Below, in pieces: positions 5,901-51,000 of a stretch of DNA of 64,000 nucleotides. Both the position numbers and the translations under genes were made by a program. The notes below the pieces were generated by a model, which worked only from the letters and a program-made list of their open reading frames with translations, was not told the origin of the DNA and ran no database searches. The first letter of the stretch is position 1, and each line of letters begins with the position of its first letter. The stretch covers positions 1,116,001-1,180,000 of the forward strand of contig MU053758.1 in NCBI GenBank assembly GCA_013239625.1. The letters run 5' to 3'. Source of the DNA: Lama guanicoe. Its lineage: Eukaryota.

Positions 5901-6421
5901 TAAATATTTAATTTCGTAATGAATTCCAAGCAAAATGCTCAGAGTGTTTCTGTCTATCCGATACCAGCTGGTATCTGCCCACTTCTGGTAGCAGGGCCAG
6001 GAGGTGTAGCGGGAAGATCTGGGGAAGGTGTCCAAGGCCTGGTTGCTATGTGCCCCGGGCAGGCTATTCACCTTCCTGCAGCCCCGACAGGCCTGGAGTC
6101 TCAAAGCTGCATGACGGTGTGTGGTTGTCCCATTGTCCCCTCCACCTGGCTCAGATGGATTCCCCTTGGGTGTTTTCTTGGCCACCTCTTCCCCAGACCC
6201 TCCCTCTCCTCATATTTTCCAAAAATATTGCATCACTTACCTGAATCCTGGGTTCATTTGGCCCCTCCTTCAACTCTTTCAATCCTGGGCTATTAAAAGA
6301 GCCCCTGGTTAGGAGACAAGAAAGGGCTGCTCCAAGCGACCTGCCCCTTCTCCCCACTGACCCCTTTTTCTCCCCAACCCCTATTCCTGTAGAGCGCCCC
6401 ACCCTCAGGTCTGGAAGCGCC

Positions 6422-6724
6422 ATGACCGAAGTTGGTTGGTGGAAGCTGACTTTCCTCCGGAAAAAGAAATCCTCTCCCAAGGTTCTCTATGAGATCCCCG
6501 ATACCTATGCCCAAACTGAGGGCAGCGCGGAGCCCCCGAGGCCTGACGGCGGAGACCCTGACAGCCACTTTAACACCCGCCTGGAGAAGATTGTGGACAA
6601 GAGCACAAAGGGCAAACACGTCAAAGTCTCCAACTCGGGCCGCTTCAAGGAGAAGAAAAAAGTCCGAGCCACGTTGGCGGAGAACTCCAACCTCTTTGAT
6701 GACAGGGAGAGCAAAGGACAGTGA
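6422..6724 (+). CDS. PRR15L: Proline-rich protein 15-like (ATAD4), complete single coding exon, 100 aa
   Basis: Translation [34 protein letters not shown]...[36 protein letters not shown] matches the PRR15/PRR15L family. Kozak GCCATGA. Polypyrimidine tract with AG acceptor at 6391-6392. Lies convergent to PNPO, as in human. Confidence 0.96.
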
Positions 6725-24562: not shown

Positions 24563-24663
24563 TTACAAGTTCTTCGTGACCAGGTGTGTCTTGTAATGCT
24601 TGGTGAGGTGGTCACTCCTCATGAATCGCTTCTGACACTGGGCACACTCGAAGCGTTTGTCCC
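24563..24663 (-). CDS. SP2: Transcription factor Sp2 exon 7 (zinc finger 3, TAA stop)
   Basis: (G)[32 protein letters not shown], 101 nt. Confidence 0.97.
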
Positions 24664-25399
24664 CTGGGAAGAGGAGATGCCGGTCACTCCCACAGCCCAC
24701 GAGCCCAGACTGTCCCAGCCCCGAAAAAGGAGGCACGTGTGTGAGGGGCACCCGTGAGGCCATGTCATCTGCTCACACGATTGCTCCCCATGGTCTACTG
24801 ATCTGAACCTTTCTCCATTCCCACCCCTGCAAACCCCCCACAGCACTTCCCAGCCCACTCTGTCCATCCCTTGCCCCCCCCCAAACGCCGCACTCCTGTC
24901 CCCGCACCCGGGACGCTTCTGGTGTAGGCTTTCACCTGCTTCTTCTGATCTTTGTCCCTCTGACTCAACGTCCTCCCCATCACACCTGCCAGCCTGAGAA
25001 CTAACTTAGCACGAACCACACCCATGGGGCCAGGTCAGCTGCTCTTTTTACTCTTTAGCCGGCAGGGAGTGGACATGACCTTCCCCGCCATACCAGCCGG
25101 AGCTCTGGGTCTTGTGTCCCCAGGACAAGGGTCTGCTCACTGGGGGCACTGGCCATAGCAGAGCAGTTCCCATAGCATGTGCCGTGGGCCACTGGAGAGG
25201 CCAAGACAATCTCAGGTGGTAGACGGAGGAAGATTTTTCTATTTTATAGTTTTGTATTTATTTGCTAGTACATTAAAGCATTAAACTATGATCTCAAGCC
25301 TGTGATGTCAAAAATAATACTGTATTGGACATCAATGAGTAAAAACAGTGAAATGATTTACGGAAAATCATTTGGTAAATAATAGTAGAAAGGCAATGT

Positions 25400-25625
25400 G
25401 GGACGGTGATTAAGTATGTGAACTTGGGAGCCAGAGGGCCTGGGTTGCACCCAGTACCACCAGTCACTAGCTGTGTGACCTGGCCCCCTCCATGCCTCTG
25501 TAAAATGAGCATAATCAGAGTCCCCTTCCCAGAGAATCGTTATGAGGATTAAATGAGTTAATTGGTAAAACGTGTAGCACAGTGCCCGGCACACAATTGG
25601 CAGGGTTTGTTACGTAAATAACTGT
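25400..25625 (+). repeat. MIR SINE
   Basis: cactagctgtgtgacct..ctgtaaaatgag..gttatgaggattaaatgag..cacagtgcccggcacac. Confidence 0.75.
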
Positions 25626-25942
25626 GGCGATGGCAGAAGTCATCAAGGCTGGGCCATGCAAGCGAGCTCACTTTGGGAGCAGTAAAGGAATGCAATAAAG
25701 GAACGGCCTGAGAGAATTTCCTGGGTAATTCTGCACCCCAAGAAGACAGTCTATAGCTCTTGCTCAGGGAGATAGTTCATTGGCAGGGCCAAGAATCAAT
25801 GTCCTGAGACAGTGGAGTGGGGGTGGCGGAGAGGCTGGGAGCAGACCCGGGTGGGTGCAGGCGCAGGTAGGGGTGGGAGCGAGGAGCAGGCCCATGTGGG
25901 CCAGAGGGTGCTGCAGGGTGCGGCAGGGTCGGGGGAGCAGAC

Positions 25943-26136
25943 CTGTGTGGGTGCGGGCGTGCCGCTGGAGTTCGTCACTCCGCGTGAACCTCTTCCCACA
26001 GAAGAACCAGTTGCAGACAAAGGGCCGCTCTCCGGTGTGCAGGCGCACGTGAGCCCGCAGCAGGGACGTCTTACGGAAAGTCTTGCCGCAGTCGGGGATG
26101 TGGCACACATGCTTCTTCTTGCCCTGTTCTCCGGAC
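25943..26136 (-). CDS. SP2: SP2 exon 6 (zinc fingers 1-2)
   Basis: [64 protein letters not shown], 194 nt; has the Sp2-specific Leu in ZF1 (TSLLRAH). Confidence 0.97.
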
Positions 26137-26368
26137 CTGGGAGTTGGGTTGAGGGTGGGTGGAGGGAATGGGAAGCAGAGAGAGCGAGGAGGCAGAAGAG
26201 GGGGCACAACAGGATGGAGAGAGGATGTGGGGTGAGGTCAGAGAGCACCAGAAGGGGGAGGAGGCCAGGTGGCATGGAGCCGCTACCTTGTCCCCTCTCC
26301 ATCCCAGGCAGTGCCTGGGGCACAGAGCATATGCCAGGTTGGCCACCTGGCCCTTCTCCTTGAATTAC

Positions 26369-26543
26369 CTCTTGTCCCCGTCCTTGCAGTTGGGACATGT
26401 GCAGGCCATGCGGCGCCGCTTCTCCCCGGGCTGGGCCTCTCCAGCCAGGGCCTGTTCCATCTGCAGCTGGATCTGGGTGGGGCTCAGCCCACTGATGGTC
26501 AGGTTGTTCCCAGAAACATTCTGTACCGTCAGCTGCTGCTGCC
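26369..26543 (-). CDS. SP2: SP2 exon 5 (Buttonhead box)
   Basis: QQQLTVQNVSGNNLTISGLSPTQIQLQMEQALAGEAQPGEKRRRMACTCPNCKDGDK(R), 175 nt. Confidence 0.97.
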
Positions 26544-27046
26544 CTGTGGGGAGGAGGAGGGCACAGTCCAGAGTGAGGAAGCCCAAAGGGGCAGAGGAGG
26601 GAGCCTGACTCCCTTCTTCCTTTCTGCATGTGGTAAGGATGAAAATCATAGTAGCTAATATTTTTGAGAACTTGCTATGTGCCAGGCACCATCTTAGAGA
26701 GCTTAAATGTATTAACACATGTAACCTTCCTAACCCCGTGAAATAGGAACTGTCACCCCCTTTACAGATGAAAAAATAGACTCATCTTTGGTCTGCACCA
26801 AACTATTCTGAATTATATGTTAGTTGGAGAATTTTCCTGAGTATAGGTAAGGTCAACACGTGTCTTAAACTATCTCACGGGGCTACTGCAAGGGCTAAGT
26901 GGACATGCTTTTAAGCTGGAAGGGACCAGGCAGCCGTCAGGCATAGCCTCACTGTTGTAACTGGGAATCCCAGGCTGGCCCGCAGTTCCCGTGTCCGGGG
27001 TGCACAGGCACACTGCCCACGCCCTGGCCCGGGGGCCTTCCCTCAC

Positions 27047-27359
27047 CGCCAGTGTTGGTGATGGTGACAGGGACGCCCTGGACCTGGACACCATTGATGT
27101 TGATGGTCTGCATGGCCTGGGCCGCCGCTGCCAGCTGAGCTGCATTCAGGCTGATGATGCTCCCAGCAGGTGCAATCTTTGGCAGGGGACGCTCTTTCCG
27201 GAGAATCGCAGCCGAGTGCTTTTTGCCGGTCCCACTCAGATGGGCAGCACGGGACGCAGGGCTGCTACACGTGGTGGTAGAGGTGGTTGCAGCTGTCGCT
27301 GGGGGGCTGTCCTGGACAAGGACCGTTTGTACCTCACCTGAAGGCGTACGGATGTAGAC
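27047..27359 (-). CDS. SP2: SP2 exon 4
   Basis: VYIRTPSGEVQTVLVQDSPP...ILRKERPLPKIAPAGSIISLNAAQLAAAAQAMQTININGVQVQGVPVTITNTG, 313 nt, AG/GTGAGG. Confidence 0.95.
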
Positions 27360-27679
27360 CTGGGAGGGGTGAGAGAGGAAAAGTCAGTGCTTCCGGAGAG
27401 ACCTGGCTCCGCCACCCTTCAATGTAGTGTCACCTCGATGCCCAGGTGAGAAGTGGGAGTGCCTCTCGTCCACCCAAGTCTTCTCCAACTAGCCCAAACC
27501 TACGCTCAACAAAAAGGGGTGATGGTGTCCCTGTACTAAACCAACAAATGTTGACTGTTGATTGGAAACAAAACACGTAATTTACTTAGCATGGTAAAAT
27601 ATAATGCCAAATCTCTGAATTGAAGAATTAGAAGGAAGCTATATGATGACCTCACAGAAGATACACTGTGAATGCTCAT

Positions 27680-30370
27680 CAAACAAATGAAAACAGCCTT
27701 TAGGACTCACAATTCAGATTGGCAATGATGGAAAAATAAAATATAACGCTTTGTTGGTGAGAAAGCAGAGAAAGAGGGGCGTGTTGTCACATCAGGGTGT
27801 GACGTGGTCTAGGCTTGCTGGGGAGAAGTCTGGGAATGTGTATCCAAAGCCTTAAAAATCTGCATGTTAGAGCCAGAGACTGACACATGCCACAGCACGG
27901 ATGAACCTAGAAAACAGTATACTAAGTGAAAGAAGCCAACTGCGAAAGATCACCCATTTACATGAAATGTCCAGAATAGGCAAATCTATAGAGATGGAAA
28001 ATGGATTCGTGGTTGCCAGGGGTTGAGGTGAGGGTGAAATGAGCAATGACCACTAAAGGGGTCTTTTTGAGGGATGAAAATGTTCTAAAATTAGATAGTG
28101 GTGATGGTTGCATAACTCTGTGAATATGCTAAAGCCCACTCACTATGCTGTGCACTTTAAAAGGGTAAATTTCATGGTATGTGAATAACTCAATAAAGCT
28201 GATAAGAAAAAAAAAAAAAGGGAGAGATGGGAATGTGTCAAAAGGGGTACAAGAGCCAACCTGAAAGCTCAAGTGGCCAAAGCTGGAACAACGTGAGCAA
28301 CAAAATAAATAACACAGTATTGGATTGTAACCCTGAGTATAAAATAAATATACATGAGTCCCTTCTGATATAAATAAGTGATTGAATAAATAAATAAATG
28401 GAGAAGAAGCAAATCTTCCTTACAGAAGATTTCCAAAAAATATTACGTAGATGTTTTCCCTTCCAGGATACAGAGCTTAATTCTTGTCCCCACTCCCACC
28501 CCTGAAGATGGGAGACTTAGCAACTTGCTTCCAAAGAATCAAGAAAGGGAAAAGTAACAACTTGATAAATGAAGAAACTTGGCAAACACCACCTTAACCA
28601 AGTGATGACAGTTAACATCAGGGACGTTATGTCACCAGGGATGTTGTGTGGACATCATGTTTCCCTCGTGTAATGCGACGTGAAGGGGCATTTCACCTCT
28701 GTGGTAGTCTTTCCAAAACCCATAATCCCAGACTGGAGGATATTTTATAGGATACCTGACCAATGTGTCTCTATACTGTCAAGATCATGGAAAACAAAGA
28801 CCGAGAAGCTATCCGACCAGAGGGACCTGGGGAGACATGCCCACTGAGTGCAATATGGTATTTGGACCAGATCTGGGAACAGAAAGAGGACATGAATAGA
28901 AAACTGGTGACGTCCAATCAAGTCTGGAGTTTAGAGAACAGTAATGTGCCAATGTCAGTTTCTTAGGGACACATGAACCCCAGTAATACAAGATGTTTAA
29001 CAAGGTGGCGCAGGGTGTGGATCCCAGGTGAGAGGTGTAAGACCCTCTGTACTACCTTTGCAACTTTTCTGTAAATATAAACTTATTCTAAAATAAAAAA
29101 TTAATTTAAAAAATTTCTATCACAGTAAAAGATACTAAAACAAGTAGGCAAAAGTCTGATGAGGAATTGAAGGAGGATTAATAAAATGGCCGCACTTAGG
29201 CTAACAGATTGCTTATTCCTATGCTTGCCCTTAAAACGGTCAACTGACCTGGCTGACCCGGTTGCTAATCACAGTTCCAGCTCCATTGTTAAAACTAAAG
29301 CTATTGATCTTACTGTTTCTACTTTATTCCAGTAATCAAAAGCCATAATCATGGCTTAGTCTCTGAGTCAATCTCCAGGGAGAAGGTCACAGGACTTTAA
29401 CTTTACAAAATAGCCTGAATTACCAAGAAGACCACACCTTGAGTGCTTAAAGAGATAAAGAGATCTAATTGTTGGCCTCTATAGAATTGGTCACCTGGAG
29501 GCATCATGTCGCCATTCTAAGTCTTCTGATGAGAAAATGATTCTGTTGCTTGTTATCAATGCTTTATTGTTTGAGCTATGGCTATATAACCCCTCTCCAC
29601 CCCATCCCCAAGGTGGATTCACAGTTTTGAAGGCACTAGCCTGCTGGGAGTCCCCTTTGCCCGGCAAAGCAATAAAATTGCCTCTTTTCTTCTAAGCTCC
29701 AAGACCTTGTGTCTGGGTTATTTGGCTTGTCAGGAACGGGGCCGATCTTTCAGCAACAGAATGAGTTATTTACACAGAAAATATCTCCCTACAAAATACT
29801 AATCCATTACAAAGAGAACAAAGTAACTTTATGGGGCAGAAATCTGCCAAATATCACTTTAATCATCACCAGTAATGAGACAAGTCAAAATCACGCACCC
29901 CCTTTTAGGATGCAGTGAGAACACAGCATCACTTCTGTGATATTTCTGCAAAAAAAACTTGCATGCAGTCATGAGGAAACACCACACAAACTTAAATTGA
30001 GGAACTTCCTACAAAGGCACGTAGCATTCTAAGTGTCAAGGTCATGAACTTCAAGTGAAGACTCAGACTATTCCAGGTCAAAACAGACTAAGGAGATGTG
30101 ACAATTAAGTGCAATGCATGACACTGGATGAGATCCTTTTGCCACAAAGGAAATTACTGGGGCGAGTGTGAGAACTGAATGGGGTCTCTGAATTAGACGT
30201 TATATGCTTCTTGGCTAATTTCCGCTGTTTGATGGTTGCACTGTTATGTAGAATGTCCTCCTTGCATGTAAGAATTACACACTTTCTATAAAACATTCAA
30301 AAAAATTGGGGGCATGGTGGCAACTTACACTCATGATGCAGGGGAAAAAAGTTACTTGTTTAAAAAAAAT
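27680..30370 (+). mobile_element. Cluster of nested ancient L1 3' fragments (L1MB/L1MC-like)
   Basis: L1M 3'UTR motifs (gatgaacctagaaaac..ctaagtgaaagaagcca, aaatgtccagaataggcaaatctatagaga, tagatagtggtgatggttgca, ctctgtactacctttgcaacttttctgtaaa) and A-tails; boundaries approximate. Confidence 0.8.
29168..29758 (+). mobile_element. ERV1-type solo LTR, 591 bp, nested in old L1 within SP2 intron 3
   Basis: TG...CA ends; perfect 4-bp TSD GAAT (29164-67 / 29759-62); TATATAA at 29583; AATAAA at 29671. Confidence 0.82.
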
Positions 30371-30550
30371 CCTGCTGTGATTTTGATTGGGGTTATTTTT
30401 AATCCCTGGATTATTTAGGGCTGTGTTATCTCTTAATAAATACGCATCTCATCCCCAGTTTTCAGATACATGCCACTTTTGCAAATCGTTGCTATTTTCT
30501 GCGTATCTGAAGTTTCTGTTACTAGAACATTTTCTTTTCACCATATAGAA

Positions 30551-30740
30551 CAGGGGTCAAAACACTTTTTCAGTAAAGAGCAGATAGTAAATGTCTTAGG
30601 CTATGCGGGTCTTGAGGCCTCTGCCTTGTGGTCCAAAAGCCGCATAAATGGGCATTTCTGTGTTCCAGTTACACTTTATTTACAAAAACAGACAGAAGGC
30701 CAGATTTGACCTCAGGGCTGTGGATTGCCAGTCTCTCTGG
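30551..30740. mobile_element. MER58A-like hAT DNA element
   Basis: caggggtcaaaacactttttcagtaaagagcagatagtaaatgtcttaggct...ctttatttacaaaaacag..ggccagatttg. Confidence 0.75.
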
Positions 30741-32150
30741 TACAGAGTATAATACATTTTTAAAATGTGTGTATCCTTTGAGCCGCTTTTAGGATTTAAT
30801 GATAAGACTGGAAACAGCCTAGATCTACAGCTAATAGGGTTTTAGTTAGATAATAGACTGTACCTCAGGATATCATTAAAAAATAATGTTGCTAAATCTT
30901 TCTATGTATGTCTGATTATTTCCTTAGGAAGACCTGATTTTAAGCCCTGCCTCCATCAGTCTCAAGACCTGGGACATCAAAGAAGGGAGAGGAGGCACTG
31001 CGGAGGATGTGGCACCTGAGCGGGTATCACCTCAGTCCTGCACCATTAAGGTAGGTCTGATAAGGGAACCTATCACACATGTTGTAACAAATTAAAGGAT
31101 TCATGGAAAATCAGCTGGCGGTATGTAATATGCCAGAGGAAGGAGGCATTTGAGGGCAGGCCTCAGATTTTCTCGTGCATGACTTCCACGTCCACAGCTC
31201 AAATTCAAGGGCACTTCTGCCAGAAGACTGCACAGCTCCCTGCTGTCACTCACTCTGATGCCTCGGTTCTCTCTACAGACACCTGGATTATAAATTCCAT
31301 GGCAGGAGCTGTTTTTTAATATTAAAAAAAAAATCCTTGTACAATTTTAGTTGTAGCCCCTTCCACATGTAAGACACAATGAGCCCAGGTGGAATAAGAG
31401 AAAAAGTAGAGGCCAGAAATCTGAGTTGGATCCTGGCTCTTGTCATTTGTGCTCTATGGGATCTGGATGTTTGACAACTCCTCTGAGTTCCAGGCCCTCC
31501 CTCTGCAGCATGGGCCCAATCTCCGGCCTTTACTAGGCTCACACAAAGCATAAAACCTGCCTTGCAGAGCCAAATGAATCTGAGTATTACAGCACCTTAA
31601 TAAATGCCAAAAATAGGAAGTTCTTGTTAAAGTTAGCATCCCAGATGAATCTCGCCTAAATGTTCCTTCTATAAAGCTAGGCTGCTTCTTCCTGTTTTTT
31701 TTTTTTCTTGTCATTAACAATGATCAGCATTTTTCTCATTAATTTTCTTACTTTACATCAAATTCTATGGTTCTGACTGGAATTTTTTCATTCCTGCTAC
31801 CATTCTGGGTATGTAATTCTAGAATAAAAAATAAACTTTATTATTAAAAAGTATATATCCACCCCCTACCTATGGCCCCACTAAAAGTCTCCCGTAGAGG
31901 TTTCCAAAATATAGGCATACAGGTATGCTGCATCTGATTTCTAAAGATAAGTGGTACCCCACTTTTGAATTGGCAGAAATGGCCATTTACTACCCACCCC
32001 AAAGGACACTGACCACTGCAAACGACTGACTCCCAACACTCAGGTCAGACTGGGAGACGCACCAGCATCATCGAGGAAAGCAAGCCGAGGGGAATGGAGC
32101 GGCAGAGCTGAGGAGGAGAGGGAGGCGCGTGCGGAGGGTGCGCGTGGTAC

Positions 32151-33125
32151 CTGAGTAGGCGACGGCTCGGCAGCCTGGATCTGAAAGTTCTGGGAGGGCT
32201 TCTGGGGGACGGTGGGGAGCGTGGCGGACGCCGCCTGCACCACCCGCAGGGCCTGCTGGGGGATCTGCACCACCTGCTGCTGCTCGGCCTTGGGGGGCAC
32301 CACCTGGACCTGCTGGACCACGGCTGGCTGGCCCCCACCAGGGCTCTGAACGATGAGCAGGTTGTTTCCCGCCTGGATGATGTTGTCCGCAGTGGTCTCG
32401 ATCAGCACCGTCTCCACCTGCTCAGCCACAGCCACAGGGGGCTGGGAGGCAGGAAGACTCTTCTTCCTGGCTTTCTTGTTAGTCTTGGACAGTGGGGCAG
32501 GGGGGCTCTCCGCAAGGAGCTGAGTGGGGGCCCCGGTGTCGCTGGTGTTCACGAGGTTGTTGACAGGCAGAGTAAGTGTCACGTTGCCACCCCCACCTGT
32601 CAGCTTTACCACATTGGCCCCGCTCTGCACAGGGGTGGTGGTCGTACTTGACTTCTGGACAGGGGCTGGCTTGATGGGGACAGGCTTGTGACTGGATGGT
32701 GAGGGGGTGATGATGGCTTGGTTGGTGCCAGGGATGATCTGGATCTGGTTGGTGAGATTGGGCTGTACCTGGATGGTCTGGGAACTGCTGGCCTGAATCT
32801 GAGGGACCGCCTGGTACTGGATGCTGGCATTCGCTCGGGACCCCTTGTTGATCATGGTGGGATTCTGGATAGCGAACACCAGCTGCCCCCCGGGATAGGA
32901 CGCACTCAGTTGTGACCCCTGAATCTGAAGTATGTTTCCTTTGGAGGACAAGATTCCAAAGCTATTCTTGCCGGGACTGAGAGGGAGAGGGGCGGGTTTA
33001 ATAGGGACGAGCTTCCGTGGTGTGGGCTGGGGGGGAGCAGGAGGCGTCACTGCAGCTTCAACAGCTGGAGGGCCAATTTTGCTACATGTTGCGGCAAGCA
33101 GGGCTAAGGGAGATGGCTGGGAGTC
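32151..33125 (-). CDS. SP2: SP2 exon 3 (Sp box and Gln-rich domains)
   Basis: DSQPSPLALLAATCSKIG (Sp box) ... QIQAAEPSPTQ, 975 nt, AG/GTACCA. Confidence 0.97.
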
Positions 33126-33892
33126 CTGCAAAACACCAAGCGGAGACGCAGAGTGAGACGTGAGGGCCTGCTGCCCAGCACCCCCGCCCTTTGGGAGCCT
33201 CTCCTCTTGGCAGGCTCCTCCTCACCTGGCAGGCAGGGAGCCAGCATACTCCCCCTGCAGTGGCCCCTGTCTCTCCTTCCCCGCTGGTTTCTCCACTGAG
33301 TAATTAAGGGGGAAAGGGTGGGAAATGTCTTTCTCAGGAAGGAACTCCCCAGAAGCATCCTCTGACAGGGTGAACTAACAGCCTGAGCTGACCACCAGCC
33401 TTGTTTCTAAAGGGGATGTAGAATCACTTTCAGCTCGTAGACGGAGCTCTGGTAGCCCACAACATCAACTGAGGAAGCACTGAGGAAGGGAGGGAGGGAC
33501 AGAGAAAGGGAGGGGAACAGGAGGAATAAGCTCTCTGGAAAAGTGTTTTCCAGTGCTTGGGACGTGACTTTTCTGACTCGGCAGGGCTGCTCTTTCCAAG
33601 TTACAAGGAAAGAGCCTCTGGTCTGTGGGGTCACAGCCTCTGTTTTCCTTTTATGGCCAGCAGGGTCTAGTGGAAGGGCCCTTGAGTTTCATCCTGCTTT
33701 TCCCCCTGACCCAACTGTGGCCCTTTAGGTAAATGGCCCTTCATTTTTTAGTTCAGAAAAAGTGGAAAACTGAACCCTCCTCTGTGTAAGCAGAGTGAGC
33801 CAGGACAGTTTCAGTTGTGGGTTAATGTCAGCTGCAGTGAGCCCTTCCAGGCCGATGCAGCCCCCAACCCTCAGAACACACTGCCTACTTGC

Positions 33893-33969
33893 CTGGGTGG
33901 TAGAGGCGGCAGGCTGAAGGTAGTCACTGGGACTGACAGCGGCAGTGGCAGCCATGCTGGTCTGTGGAT
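33893..33969 (-). CDS. SP2: SP2 exon 2
   Basis: (D)PQTSMAATAAVSPSDYLQPAASTTQ, 77 nt; CAGCAG acceptor and non-canonical CAG|GCAAGT donor. Confidence 0.92.
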
Positions 33970-35266
33970 CTGCTGGAAGAAAAGAGATGGAGTAAGACCC
34001 ATGATGCCCCAAAAGAACCAAAGGAACCCAAGTCCTTTTGCCTCAGATTTCCTTTTTGCCTTATTTGCTGCTGCTTCCCCAAGAGAGGTTAATAACCTTT
34101 CCCTACACTTCCCCACTCAAGGTTAGCTACCCTACAACTTTTTCAGTAGACGACCTTCTTCTCTCCGCAGACTCAGCCATCAAGGGCTGCAAGGACAGCT
34201 GGTCCTGTCTCCACTGGACTGTCCCCTCCAGCCATCATAAAGTCTAGGAGAACAGTGAGACTATACTAAAACTGTATAGAGTAGCAGTCACCAAGCTGTG
34301 CCATCTAATGGAGCCCTCTCTGGTGGGCACTGCTGACTCTCCCTAGCTAGACTGTACGGTGGGTGGGGGAGCCCCCAGCTAATCCTGTAGCTCTGACCCA
34401 GGCTTCTTGCTCACTCCTGCTGTAGCCAGATGCCAAGCCAGCCTGGGAGAGAAGCATCACTGGGCTAGAATCCCTGGCAAGGAGGACACACCCACTCCAT
34501 GCAAAAGTCTTGAGTGCTTTCTACTCAGCCTTCACCACAAAGGTGCAATGGCTCGTGTGTCAACATATGGGTAATTGCTTTAAATGAATTTACAGTTTTA
34601 CACATGACAAGATGCATGATCCCACAGGTATCACCGAGACTAGGACAGCTAATAACTGAATATAATGAGAAGAATGAAAATATAATAAATCCCATTTTTG
34701 CTTAAATGTACATATATTTCTATATATGAATATAGCAGGATAAAGTCTTAAAAAAAAAAGCTAAAATGCAAAAAGCCATAATCTCCTGGTGGTAGATTTT
34801 TGCTTCACTTTTTTCCCCTTGTTTTTCTGTATTTTCTCATTTTGCCCACAATGAATACACTCTATTGTACTTTCGTTTTAAATAAAGGAAAATAAAGAAC
34901 GTTGAGGAAGTAATGAAGGGAATCTCTACCCTGAACTTAAGTCTGATCTAAAAGAATACAAGATAAGTAAAATGGAAATCAGGAGAATTTGGGGGGAAAG
35001 AATCTAAGCCATGTTATACTTTATAAATTACTAAGAAAAAGAACACCGGCAGAGAGTCAGACTTGTATCTTAGACCTTTGGAAAGTAGGTTTCAGAAAGT
35101 ACAGAAACAAGAAGGATATTATTCAGAGACTCAAAGAGGCAGTGGCTCAGGCATGGAGCCCCTGATGGGCATCTGGAGAGAAGAGAATAGACAGAGGTCA
35201 GGGGGAAGGTGGAACCACCCACATTTTGGCTGGTCTCTGGCTTCTCTCTTTGGGAGAATGATTCTT

Positions 35267-40500: not shown

Positions 40501-41379
40501 CAAGTCAGGGGCAAGTGTCCCTGCCATGTGCCAGTGTACGTGCCCCATGGCTCCCCTGACAGGGCAGGGAGTGCGTCTCTGTCCTAGGGGTCTTTCCGTG
40601 GGCTGACTCAGGGAGCACCACATAACAGGAAGAGGCCTCAGATGGGACCCCAGAGCCCTGGCCATCAGACTATTGGCTGTTGCACTGGTCTTTCACTTGA
40701 GAATATTACTCTTGAGACAAAGGGGATGAGAGAGAAGGGATCCAAAGAAACATCACAACAGTGGGCTCTGGGAAGGAACTTGGCTCAAACTCCACAGCCA
40801 GGTCTTGGGCTGGGCTTTTTTTGCCTCCTGGTTCCTACCATCCTGGCTATGGCTTTCTTGGCCGTCTGCTATGGTGTTTCTTCTAGAGGAATTTCACTCC
40901 ACACAAACAGTCCTTCTGCTGGCTATTTTGGTCAGTTCAGTTGGGCCTGAAGCCAGTTAAACAGTTTCCAAGCCCAGGCTTTTCCAGTTGCCTAGCCTGA
41001 AAGAATTCAGAGCTGGTAAGGGAAAAGCAAGCCACAGCTAGTTCTAGAGAACAAACGTGCACCTCAAAGGGAGTTGACAAATGGGCTTGGATGCAGAAAG
41101 CAGCTAGAAAGACTCCAAATTGCTCTGAGCATTTCTGAGAAGCAACTTGCCAATCATCATAATAACCATATAACAGTAAGAGGAATTTCATTGACTTTCA
41201 TGAAAGGAGAAGAGTTCTGGGTGTGGCGAATGCCCCAGGCCAAAAGAGGAAGGCTGGTAAAGAAGGGAGATCTTGTCTCCACCCAGACATGTGACTGAGC
41301 CATCCAGTCTTCCCTCCTCCCAACTCCGACCCCCGCCTCGGCCCATGACCCTCATTTGTGTCCACAATTTCATCAGGAA

Positions 41380-45800: not shown

Positions 45801-47039
45801 AAAGAGGTTAAACCTCTGTAAAACCAAGTGGAAGAACCAGAATTAGAAAACTTACCAACCACCCCAGCCAATAAGAATCCATTTCCAATAGGTATTAATG
45901 CCTATAGAAGCCATTGGAACACTGACATCATCAGCCCAACTAATAGGCTGTCTGACAGATTGGCCCCCTTCGTTGCACACAAGAATTTAAAACAAAATAA
46001 GACACTGCAGTTATATTCATTATTGCAGACAACAGGTTTCCTTGTAATACCATTCAAAATTACTCCTATGGTGTGGAATCTACCATCATCCCCTTCAAAG
46101 CTTCTCTGTGAGGTGACCAATACCCTAAACTTTCTAGCCCTAAAAATCTTATCCAAAATACCAACTCAACACTTAGCCCTCCACTGTGATACTTAATGCC
46201 TTCTGGGTACAGCATGCAAGTTTTAGACCGCGCATACCAGTGTACCTTGCAACAGTCATCACCCTTCTATCTGCAATGAAACCTGTGTAATGGGGGACCA
46301 TGGACCAATTCACTGCTTAGAGCAGATTTATTGACTGTTCCCTCCCTTTCTCTAAGAAAATAACAAATGAGCAAGAAGTAACCTCAGAAGAAGAAAAAAA
46401 CTTCGGGAGAATGCATACTGAGAACAGCCAGACTGAGTCCCTCTGGATTAAGCTAATTAAGAAACAATTAGACACGACAGTAACACTGGAATCAAAACCA
46501 AGGAATGCAGTGAGGACAGGTTTCTCAATTGCCCAGAGGAGAAGACACAGTTCCTTTTCATCTAAAATTAGAAAGCCACCAGGAACCTAAGCCAAGAAGC
46601 ATGGAAAGGAGGCTGAGAACCGTAAGTCAGCAATGGGGTTTGGAGATGGGGTATCCATTTTGTTTTATTTCTTCTGTCATCCCTTAGGTTTGCTCCTGGC
46701 CTTGGGGAGTCAGCAGTCCGCCCCGCTCCCAAGGATGTCAGGCAACAGGCTTGAAGTTCTGTCAACAAGTTCTTAAACGTCTCACATGCTAAGAGCTTGG
46801 AGATATCTAGCTGGAGGTTCAAGGATGTAAGTGGAAATATTAAAAGGTTTCTGCCCGCAGTCTAAGGCGAGAGGCCATCTGCCTAGGGAGTGCCCTCGCG
46901 TCCTGACACCATCCCTCGACTGGGATACATTGGTAATTAGGTTGGCTTCCACGCCCAGCAGTGCCCATGTGGTTGGCGCCGTTGGAATTTCAAGCATTCC
47001 CCCGCCCACTTCTGCACTCGGGAGAGCCCTGAATCGCTG

Positions 47040-48050
47040 TGGGCACCTAGAGTTTAAGTGAAAGAGGGTCCCCCGAACATAGGGCAAGCGCAAAGGGCGT
47101 CGACCGCCTCCTCAGAGCAGACACAAGCAACGTCTCCAGGCCAACGACCGGGCAGAGGGGGTGCCAGGCCCGCCACGGGTGCCCGCTTCTCTCGCCAGCC
47201 CCCGGAAGCGCCGCCCTCCCGCCCAGCGGGCTCCGAGGGGGCGGGGAGTCGAACGCCCCCTTCCGGGTGCCTCCGCCTGGCTGGCCAGCCCCGCTCCTCC
47301 TCCGGGCGGGAATCCTCCCTCCCCGCCCCTCCCGGAGCCGGGCCCCGGCGCCAGGCCCGGCCCCAAGGGGGAACCCCCAGCCCCGGCTCCCCCTCCCTGC
47401 GGCCTCTGCCAGTCTTCCCGACCCTTGAGAGCCGGGAAGACCCCGCCGGCAGCGGCCAGGACCCACCGCTCATTACGACATCTTCCTCCCTGGCCTCCGC
47501 CGCCTCCGCCGCCACCGAGAGCCTGACACCGCCCGCCTAGCGCCCGCCAATCCCGGAGCCCGCCACCGCCCGAGCGACGGCAGCATTCACCAATAAGAGT
47601 TCGGTACATTGGGGACCGACAGCACTACTAACCAATCAAAGAGAAGCATCTAGAGCGACGTTGGTTTGGCCAATAGACCCGTGAAATGTCACTGATGGAC
47701 GGTAGAGAGCACCAACCGGAAGCCTAGTGTAGAGTGAACGACATGTTCGCCAGCCAACTGGCGGGAGGTAAAGTCCCGCCCACAAGGTGGTTGATGGACA
47801 GCAGCAGGAAGCTAGATGGGGAGGGGCTTAGCTGAGGAGTGGTTTTGCATTGGTCGTGGTTGACCTTCCACCCACCTCTAACCCAGAAGATGAGTGATAG
47901 ATCTGCCCTAAAGCCAATCGGCAGTCCTCAGGGTGAGGCCGAAAAATGCCCTATAAATAGCACCTACTTTGCGCCTCAATCCTGTGTCGCCCCGCTGAAG
48001 CGGGGTCCTTCTGCTCTTCGGCCTCTAAAACCAGTGCCTGGTGAGTGGAA
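47040..48050. promoter_or_regulatory. SP2 CpG-island promoter with CCAAT array; bidirectional architecture
   Basis: Dense CpG and GC boxes; CCAAT at 47547, 47590, 47632, 47670, 47914; plus-strand TATA-like CTATAAATAG at 47951. Confidence 0.88.
47467..47473 (-). CDS. SP2: SP2 exon 1 coding part (ATG AGC G)
   Basis: ATGAGCG|GTGGGT inside the CpG island; joins exon 2 to give MSDPQTSM. The exons sum to 1842 nt = 613 aa + stop. Confidence 0.88.
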
Positions 48051-51000
48051 AGCGACCAGTTTTTTATTTAGTCCCTCGCCTTTCATCGCTTCTGGAGAGG
48101 GAAGTGAGCCCTCAGGCGACTTTGTACTGCGAGGCATTGGCGTCGGACACAATAGTTGGGGCTACGTGACACTTCGAAGAGAGAGGATTATTCTCACCGT
48201 CTCAGTTCAAACCCCCTCTTAATCCTCACCTCGTTACTGCAGCGACCGCCTAACATGGGCATCAGAATCACCTGAAGCTCTCTAAAAGTCGATTACCCGG
48301 GCTGCCCCTCGTGTCTAGGGCACGCCTGGAATATGCATTCTAACCAGAGCCTCGGGTGGACTGACATGGTTTGTGCCCCACTTTCCTCCTTGAATGAGGT
48401 GCTGTGAGTACAGGACTTGGCAGTCGCTACCTGGATAGGTTTACCTTTTCTACGGATGCGTAACTTGAGAAGGCTGCCTGGCATTAGTGAGAAGGAATCC
48501 GCTCTGGTTTCAGACCAGCCTGGGTTCGAAACTTAACACACAGCCTACTTAGAGAGAGGCAGGGTACCGAAACTCCACGCGCTTTATGTCTTCATCTGTA
48601 TCTGTAAAATGAGGCTAATCACACCTACACCTTAGAACAGCGGTGGTTTCCTTTTTTTTTTTAAATCTTAACCCCACGATAAGAAATACATTTGCATGCT
48701 GACCCAGTACACATATACTCCCATGAGAGTGAAGTTTCGGAGAACAGTATTTACCCTTCCTACGCGAAGTGCACCGATATTTTCTATCCTGTCATATCTT
48801 ATTCTTCCCTCCCTCCCTCCCTCGTTCCTCCTTTCCTTTCTTCCTTTTCTTGATAATGACTGGCAGTTTGAAGAACACTGTTATAAAGGGTTGGTGTGAT
48901 AAAATACAGAGCAGAATGCCCAATACACTGTAATTGTTGAAAAAATGTTAATAGTCTCTTCCCAGTCACCCCTCTCAGATTTAGCCTCTGAAAAGACAAG
49001 ATTTCAAAAGACAACACTCCTCTAGTTAAGATCCTTCACTGGCTCCCTGCCCCCTTCTGAATAAAAAGTCCATACTCCTTTCTAGCAAACAATGTCCATG
49101 TGCTTTCTGTATTTTTATACTTTATCTCCCTCTGCCACCCTATTCCCTTTCCACAAACCCTACGTTTATGCCTCCAGGAAAGATTGCACAGTTCCTAAAC
49201 ACTTTTGCATCTATTTCTCTTCCTACTCTATCCTTTCTTTCTCCTGGTAAACTATGCATCCTTCAAGAACCTGCTCAAGGTCTGAACTCACGCTGAGCCA
49301 TAGCTTTTTCCTTCTCTGGACTGCTGTTGGCACATGCAAAGAGCTTCACTCAGTCCCACGGCATTACACACTTATTTTTACTTCTGACTTCCCTACTAGA
49401 CTGTGAGCTGCCAAAGAGGTTTCAGGCCAGTACTAGAGGACTGGCAGGAAATGTATGCTGAGTTAAAGAATGAATATTTGCCTACAATTACATCTACATA
49501 TGACCATCCATTCTGTTCCCAGGCCACTTTTCAAGTTAAGATTGCTTCACTGTCAAGCCAAGAACTCCACCCGGTTTCAATGACTCAGCTATATTGGGGT
49601 GCATGGATTTTTGAGGGAGGAGGTGGAGTTGAACATCGTGCTGGGCGGCTGCCAAACATCTTGGACGAAAGCTGGGGCAGCTGTGCTTCCCCACCCCAGA
49701 GGCCCCATCATGAAGACAGCAGAAGTGGAAAAAAAAAAAAAAAGTTTGCATGTGTGTGGGTCAGGGGACAGGGTGCAAAAACTTAGAAGAATCTGGCAGC
49801 AGTTTTGAGTTACTTAAATGGTTCGTTCCTTTTAAAAGCTGCCATTTTTCTTGTTTTTACCAGAGGCACAGACAGGGAAGGGGGTGCCTTCTAAGGAGAG
49901 GACCCCCTTATATGTGTGTCAGGACCTTTGGAGTCTTTGAGCCTTATTTACGACACCCTAAAGCCTCCACACAATTTCTCTTCTCACAGATTGCTTCTGT
50001 CAGGGTGGTCCCGTACTCCACAGAGAGAAAAGAGGCCAGGCAGCCAGCCCCTAATGCCAGCTTTCTCCTGGCCACACTTTAGACTCACTAGAGAGCTTTT
50101 ACTATATTCTAAAGTCTAGGTCACATCCTTGGCCAAGGAAATCAGAACCTCTGGGGGTGCAACTCTGGCGACGGTATTAAGAAGTTCTTCAGGTGATTCC
50201 AACAGGCAGCCAAATTAGAGAACCGCTCTTTGGCCCAGAGAATCTTCCACTGGGGGTGCTCAAGTGAACAACTATGAACAGTCTGTACCCTCCACCTCTC
50301 CCCACTCCTATCCGTCCCCTTCCAGAATTTCTCCCCTGCCCACCCTACCTGCTTCAGTCTTCTTCGTAGAGCAGGGGCCAACAAGTGGTTCCAGCCATGT
50401 GTCTCAGTGTCAACTAGGAGAAACATCTCTTTTCCAGGTGTATCTGGGGACAATTTCTCCCTGGGTGATATTTCCCTTCTTGTTTCCAACCACTTTCAAC
50501 CTCTTCCTGGTCTAGGTTGTCACTTTCTCCCATTTCTAATTTACAAAGTTACTCATTCCCCACCCTTAAAATCCTTACATTTGTCTTGTCCACCATGGCA
50601 CTTTCCACTCCCACCACATTGCTTGATATATAGTTGGTGCACAGTAAATGTTTGTTGACTGACTATTCTTTTAACATTTTTCATATACTTATCCCCTTCT
50701 CTTCCAGGCCCAGCTTCCTCCACCTCCATGTCACTTCTTTACCCCCTTCCCTCTTCATTTCCCCATGTTTTTCTTGCTTCCTTGTCCTTTTCTGCATGTG
50801 GCTGGCCCTGTCTAATTCATCAGTACCAGAGAGTGAGCATCCATCCCTCAGGAGGCTGAGGGCACCAGAAGGAGGGGTCGATGTATACAAAACCACAGTC
50901 TCTGTCCATAAGAGGCTCATTCTGGGGCCTCCTGTGAAAGGACCCACATGGGGCAGCTGGTACTGGATGTCCAGAAACTAGATGAATATCAGTGTTCCAG

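Follow-up and report, generated by a model that had tools for sequence, protein, structure and literature searches.

A probable homotypic DECA-CCAAT cluster in the SP2 proximal promoter of Lama guanicoe

The SP2 locus and its promoter

We analysed a 64,000-nt stretch of Lama guanicoe DNA (hereafter the window) whose gene at this locus is SP2, read from the minus strand. Published mouse Sp2 cDNA primers match that strand in the downstream exons at 18/23, 20/21 and 20/21, and the CpG-rich SP2 promoter harbors an array of decamer-CCAAT composites (Table 1). Mapping the mouse -87/-38 fragment of a bioRxiv preprint (10.64898/2026.02.16.706105, hereafter the preprint) onto the window, with no indels relative to mouse assumed, places the putative SP2 transcription start near 47524 and hence -150 near 47674. 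Relative to SP2 the boxes are inverted, and the decamers lie on the start-site side of their boxes. Elsewhere in the window, an open frame at 6245-6721 (+) reads like PRR15L, which we presume it to be. Human PRR15L lies near SP2 in gene order (PMC10045734).

Beyond the array, a forward CCAAT at 47914 is followed 38 bp later by a TATA-like box and then by a splice donor at 48041. This arrangement suggests that a divergent transcript has its core promoter and first exon in 47895-48046, and human SP2-DT is listed at the matching place in gene order, between SP6 and SP2 (PMC10045734).

Table 1. Features of the SP2 locus and promoter array in the window
Feature	Positions	Strand	Remarks
SP2 downstream coding exons (exon 2, large Sp-box/Q-rich exon, buttonhead box, three C2H2 fingers)	24586..33975	-	translation, Pfam zf-C2H2
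SP2 first coding bases (start codon 47473)	47467..47473	-	splice donor next
CCAAT box without decamer	47547..47551	+	among five boxes published for mouse
Unit 1: decamer CGAGCGACGG, 9 nt, CCAAT	47571..47594	+	counterpart of unit modelled and EMSA-tested in mouse
Reverse-strand CCAAT, no decamer at 10/11	47608..47612	-	abuts decamer 2
Unit 2: decamer GGACCGACAG, 9 nt, CCAAT	47613..47636	+	motif scan
Unit 3: decamer AGAGCGACGT, 8 nt, CCAAT	47652..47674	+	published 10-bp unit; phase break here
Unit 4 (candidate variant): decamer TGATGGACGG, 9 nt, CCAAC	47693..47716	+	beyond published -150/+1; box overlaps CCGGAAG 47716-47722
Unit 5 (candidate variant): decamer TGAACGACAT, 9 nt, CCAAC	47735..47758	+	beyond published interval; box overlaps CAACTG, abuts GGCGGGA (47760)
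GC box / E2F-type site	47774..47781	-	
Orphan decamer TGATGGACAG	47792..47801	+	best consensus match (1 mismatch); lacks a box at 10/11
Possible sixth unit: TGATAGATCT (GAnnGAT variant), 9 nt, well-flanked CCAAT	47895..47918	+	
TATA-like box (47952) and consensus splice donor, intron from 48041	47952..48046	+	

Composite units: published core and distal extension

A preliminary description of this DNA had reported six boxes and six decamers, all of which we confirmed: CCAAT at 47547, 47590, 47632 and 47670 and CCAAC at 47712 and 47754 (gaps of 43, 42, 38, 42 and 42 bp), with decamers starting at 47571, 47613, 47693 and 47735 (9 nt to the box), at 47652 (8 nt) and, as an orphan, at 47792. It had overlooked reverse CCAAT boxes at 47608 and 47849 and the GAnnGAT-11-CCAAT unit at 47895-47918, which is 160 bp away from box 6 and does not fall on the 42-bp grid. 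Units 1-3 show GAnnGAC followed at 11 (10-12) bp by CCAAT in the same orientation, the definition of a DECA-CCAAT site, whereas units 4 and 5 both carry CCAAC in place of its perfect CCAAT and are filed here as candidate variants.

Three further observations concern local sequence context. All five unit decamers (47571-47744) contain a CpG, and four of the five have nCGAC where the DECA consensus has nTGAC, such that CpG methylation could alter binding there. The reverse CCAAT abuts decamer 2 (47608-47622), so binding of NF-Y to this box and of PBX:PREP to unit 2 may be mutually exclusive. A reverse TGACA half-site directly precedes decamer 4 (47685-47702).

The proximal half of the array matches what has been described for mouse, where the Sp2 promoter interval -150/+1 contains five CCAAT boxes, of which two are separated from a DECA motif by 11 bp and one by 10 bp, these elements being conserved almost absolutely among mammals (the preprint). 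The corresponding interval inferred in the window holds exactly five CCAAT boxes (47547, 47590, 47608 reverse, 47632 and 47670), the reverse box probably being the fifth published one. With the same gene, five boxes and 11/11/10-bp composites, the published units would map onto 47547-47674, and units 1-3 agree with the published account in a comparison made by description. The mouse proximal unit, tested by EMSA and modelled with AF3 as a 50-mer (-87/-38), agrees with unit 1 in motif and offsets (GAgcGAC, cGA at nt 10-12, CCAA at nt 29-32), but has C at nt 34 where the plus strand of the window has A, a difference of species or of numbering. Spacers of 10-12 bp are tolerated in the preprint's models, and the 11-bp geometry is confirmed by PMC7793273 and PMC11802806. 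The core of the array (units 1-3) is thus already known in mouse, and the proposal of composite PBX:PREP and NF-Y sites at the SP2 promoter is borne out by published work.

Occupancy data from mouse point the same way. ChIP peaks for Sp2, NF-YA/B/C, PBX1 and PREP1 are reported at the Sp2 promoter (the preprint), as are Sp1 and Sp3 peaks (PMC4368557), and a promoter walk places Sp2 at its own start site (PMC3439921). Among the rows listed in PMC4368557, this promoter is row 6 of the tag-sorted Flag-Sp2FL peaks and row 4 of those for zinc-finger-less Flag-Sp2NT. Published data therefore uphold both the earlier idea that Sp2 binds its own promoter (PMC3439921, PMC4368557) and the idea that it does so without its zinc fingers. 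In Sp2-knockout cells the signals at this promoter fall from 5.38 to 1.42 for NF-YA, from 19.3 to 9.25 for NF-YB and from 4.65 to 1.83 for NF-YC, losses of 3.8-, 2.1- and 2.5-fold (PMC4368557). Knockdown of NF-YA is reported to leave less Sp2 protein.

The promoter element is real and non-random. In 47000-48400, GAnnGAC-11-CCAAT occurs twice against a mean of 0.0016 in 5000 dinucleotide shuffles (0/5000 reach 2), and GAnnGAC-10/11-CCAAY occurs five times against a mean of 0.0086 (shuffle maximum 1; 0/5000 reach 5). Five of the six GAnnGAC-10/11-CCAAY composites of the 64-kb window lie in the array, with 0.45 expected from 200 block shuffles, and among 40 spacer lengths tried in 47500-47950 only 11 (four times) and 10 (once) are present. 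The sixth composite is a lone GAnnGAC-11-CCAAT in SP2 intron 1 (40672-40694, -), of a kind for which shuffles give about 0.1 per window. The relaxation to CCAAC was chosen post hoc, and the chance figure for the distal units allows for this: two or more of the three distal decamers would be followed at 10-11 nt by CCAA or a one-mismatch CCAAT with a probability of 1e-4 to 3e-3, according to how much latitude is given. Of 100 GAnnGAC sites elsewhere in the window, one has CCAA at this distance of 10-11 nt. Chance is therefore an unlikely source of units 4 and 5.

Neither the distal CCAAC units (47693-47758) nor the 42-bp period was found in the literature covered, a scope outside which the preprint's figures and supplements and Voelkel 2018 (JBC) fall. 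The preprint's main text, in the portion available, gave no match for CCAAC, tandem, periodic or helical turn, and the available parts of PMC10270685 and PMC2833205 hold nothing on CCAAC or feedback. We slightly favor a reading of units 4 and 5 as weaker, cooperativity-dependent members in which the T-to-C change in the box would be offset by better PBX half-sites: by the consensus of PMC6023610, TGA half-sites occur in three of three cases among the two CCAAC units and the orphan and in none of the three CCAAT units, small numbers in both groups. The final T of CCAAT is the one base that NF-YA does not read base-specifically and is the usual point of departure in non-canonical sites, and the MVM P4 promoter has a functional CCAAC site bound by NF-Y, although NF-Y "in general requires a perfect match" to the pentamer (PMC5216769). 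Weak distal sites would predict that ChIP peaks shift toward the start when Sp2 is lost. In mouse wild-type cells the peak-to-TSS distance, as tabulated, is -82 to -165 (mean -114, five Sp2/NF-Y rows), which lies between the array centers of about -86 for the CCAAT boxes and about -143 for all five units. In the knockout it shifts toward the start for all three NF-Y subunits (76, 37 and 22 bp), a comparison in which both resolution and the definition of distance are too uncertain to carry weight (PMC4368557).

Two other accounts of the distal half deserve consideration. It is conceivable, if doubtful, that only the three published units are composite, the distal decamers being TALE-only and the CCAAC pentamers being kept for ETS, MYB/E-box and E2F sites. 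A CCGGAAG element overlaps box 5 and needs its C, and box 6 coincides with CAACTG and GGCGGGA; from their consensus patterns we take these three to be ETS-type, MYB/E-box-type and E2F-type. Gabpa and Elk4 motifs are enriched in Sp2 peaks (PMC3439921), the orphan indicates that decamers can stand alone, and the preprint counts three composites only. A TALE-only reading nevertheless leaves the exact 11 bp and the continued 42-bp step of both units unexplained (at the P of 1e-4 to 3e-3 given above), and NF-Y tolerates a change of the final T (PMC5216769). Alternatively, the forward CCAAT with its TATA-like box and donor, together with the position of human SP2-DT, could mean that units 4-6 mainly serve the divergent plus-strand transcript and not SP2. 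We regard this as unlikely from the layout, in which units 4 and 5, about 200 bp away from the TATA-like box, continue the SP2-proximal grid, and it is compatible with a DECA-CCAAT cluster serving SP2, not exclusive of it.

Spacing, helical phase and origin of the period

Compared with nulls that set a minimum gap of 30-35 or draw gaps uniformly from 30-50, the box gaps are more regular (P ~0.002-0.01), but the surprise is overstated because CCAAT pairs have a known helical preference that neither kind of null takes into account. The anticipated 42-bp periodicity is present, lag 42 being the top autocorrelation lag of 95, but it drops to rank 42 of 95 once motifs are masked. Since the free positions are also no more similar to one another than in shuffled sequence, the period resides in the motifs alone.

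The boxes had further been described as phased. This holds within each of two trios but not across the array, as continuity is broken at the 38-bp gap: at 10.5 bp per turn the box phases are 0, 34, 34, 257, 257 and 257 degrees, and the second trio is turned by ~125-150 degrees relative to the first. An arrangement with all boxes on one helical face is rejected by these phases, and, to judge from the 38-bp gap, the boxes need not keep phase.

If a 42-bp unit had been duplicated in tandem long ago and had since decayed, the origin considered in the preliminary description, the regular period would be accounted for. Of the 10 unit pairs, units 1 and 2 have the most free positions in common (11 of 24), and LTR12-type repeats show that CCAAT arrays can arise in this way (PMC4982600). 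We nonetheless consider such an origin improbable, and the earlier suggestion of an ancient repeat went unsupported: linker identity is 0.283 versus 0.258 shuffled (reached by 3890 of 20000 shuffles), identity at core positions between units is 0.256 versus 0.249 (8635 of 20000), the masked lag 42 ranks as given above, and TRF reports no such array in the window. Saturation could have erased a duplication signal. A different use of the period would be mechanical, with six NF-Y bends adding in one plane to wrap the promoter into a single closed loop. Four of the five gaps are 42-43 bp, NF-Y bends DNA by ~80 degrees (PMC4982600), and in a toy model six bends reduce the end-to-end distance from 92 to 20-29 nm. 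The rotation of the second trio at the 38-bp gap and the sensitivity of the toy model to the assumed helical repeat make a closed loop very unlikely. At 10.5 bp per turn a perfect six-by-42 array self-clashes in this model (0.1 nm) and the real array does not (9.9 nm); the clash is absent at 10.4 or 10.6 bp per turn, and we draw no conclusion from it.

A packing model and its relation to known systems

We put at about 0.72 the probability that the array is a homotypic DECA-CCAAT cluster in the SP2 proximal promoter on which Sp2 stabilizes activators of its own gene. In this model PBX:PREP would bind the decamer of each unit, NF-Y would bind and bend the box that follows GAC at 11 bp, and the N-terminus of Sp2 would form a bridge between the two, by which means Sp2 would stabilize activators on its own promoter. 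Mouse data show this at the level of the whole promoter, and in vitro work shows it for unit 1, with a TALE dimer, NF-Y and Sp2(1-94). Better decamers would compensate for weak boxes, which would need Sp2 to be filled.

The spacing could reflect how such complexes fit side by side. Counted from the initial C in the previous box, the decamers start at +24, +23, +20, +23 and +23, and NF-YB contacts reach +17 (PMC4982600). A decamer would then need to start beyond +17; at a 31-bp spacing it would start at +12, and 42 bp would be the first of the in-phase spacings to fit. Head-to-tail composites at 42 bp would have enough space between two NF-Y trimers for a TALE dimer. Whether the period came from selection on site packing and not from duplication is, judged from the motifs and their spacing, an even call. 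The genome-wide pattern argues against a general packing rule: double boxes associated with Sp2 have their peaks at 26 and 36 bp, and in Sp2/PBX3 modules the 43-bp class is "much less evident" (PMC4889920). The window has nine further pairs of same-strand CCAAT boxes no more than 65 bp apart, none with a decamer and none spaced 41-43 bp, and these provide no test of the rule.

A feedback loop of this kind would rather probably be positive and steady SP2 expression. Among CCAAT-containing Sp2 targets, some promoters are activated and others repressed (PMC3439921), and an effect of Sp2 on its own transcription, or its sign, was not found in the available literature on Sp2. At its most elaborate, the model becomes a five-unit close-packed lattice of TALE/NF-Y/Sp2 hexamers with 42 bp as the packing unit and PBX:PREP as the missing partner of the 43-bp class, in which it takes abundant Sp2 to fill the distal CCAAC units, so that graded occupancy reads Sp2 concentration; we offer this version as speculation that is more probably wrong than right.

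The two CCAAC units and the packing reading form a plausible extension of the published core. If true, the array would extend from three to five units, Sp2 bridging would rescue imperfect NF-Y boxes that CCAAT-only motif scans would miss, and the 42-43-bp CCAAT spacing, a question left open in PMC4889920, would have a steric reason. Such an extension is relevant to NF-Y/TALE specialists and does not amount to a new kind of system.

Several known arrangements resemble the array in part. A motif-only scan of metagenome contigs gave 0 matches to three linked boxes. LTR12 repeats carry NF-Y-bound CCAAT boxes at distances of 24 and 41 bp and owe them to a repeat-family origin (PMC4982600), whereas the SP2 array lacks similarity outside its motifs; the two are set apart by description. 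Zebrafish TALE/NF-Y elements place a DECA TGATTGACAG ~20 bp from NF-Y sites and are not an array, in a paper whose available text makes no mention of "sp2" (PMC6023610). Approximately 40% of Sp2-specific promoters have two CCAAT boxes 30-50 nt apart, a share to which imperfect boxes are expected to add; these tandem boxes are pairs with a mean spacing of ~35 bp (PMC4368557), in contrast to the run of five composites at SP2. In spacing, the SP2 array belongs with the helical CCAAT direct repeats, which peak at 31, 41, 52 and 63 bp (PMC4982600) and include a 43-bp class (PMC4889920). The partner of that class was left open in PMC4889920, and in the SP2 array each 42-43-bp gap holds a decamer.
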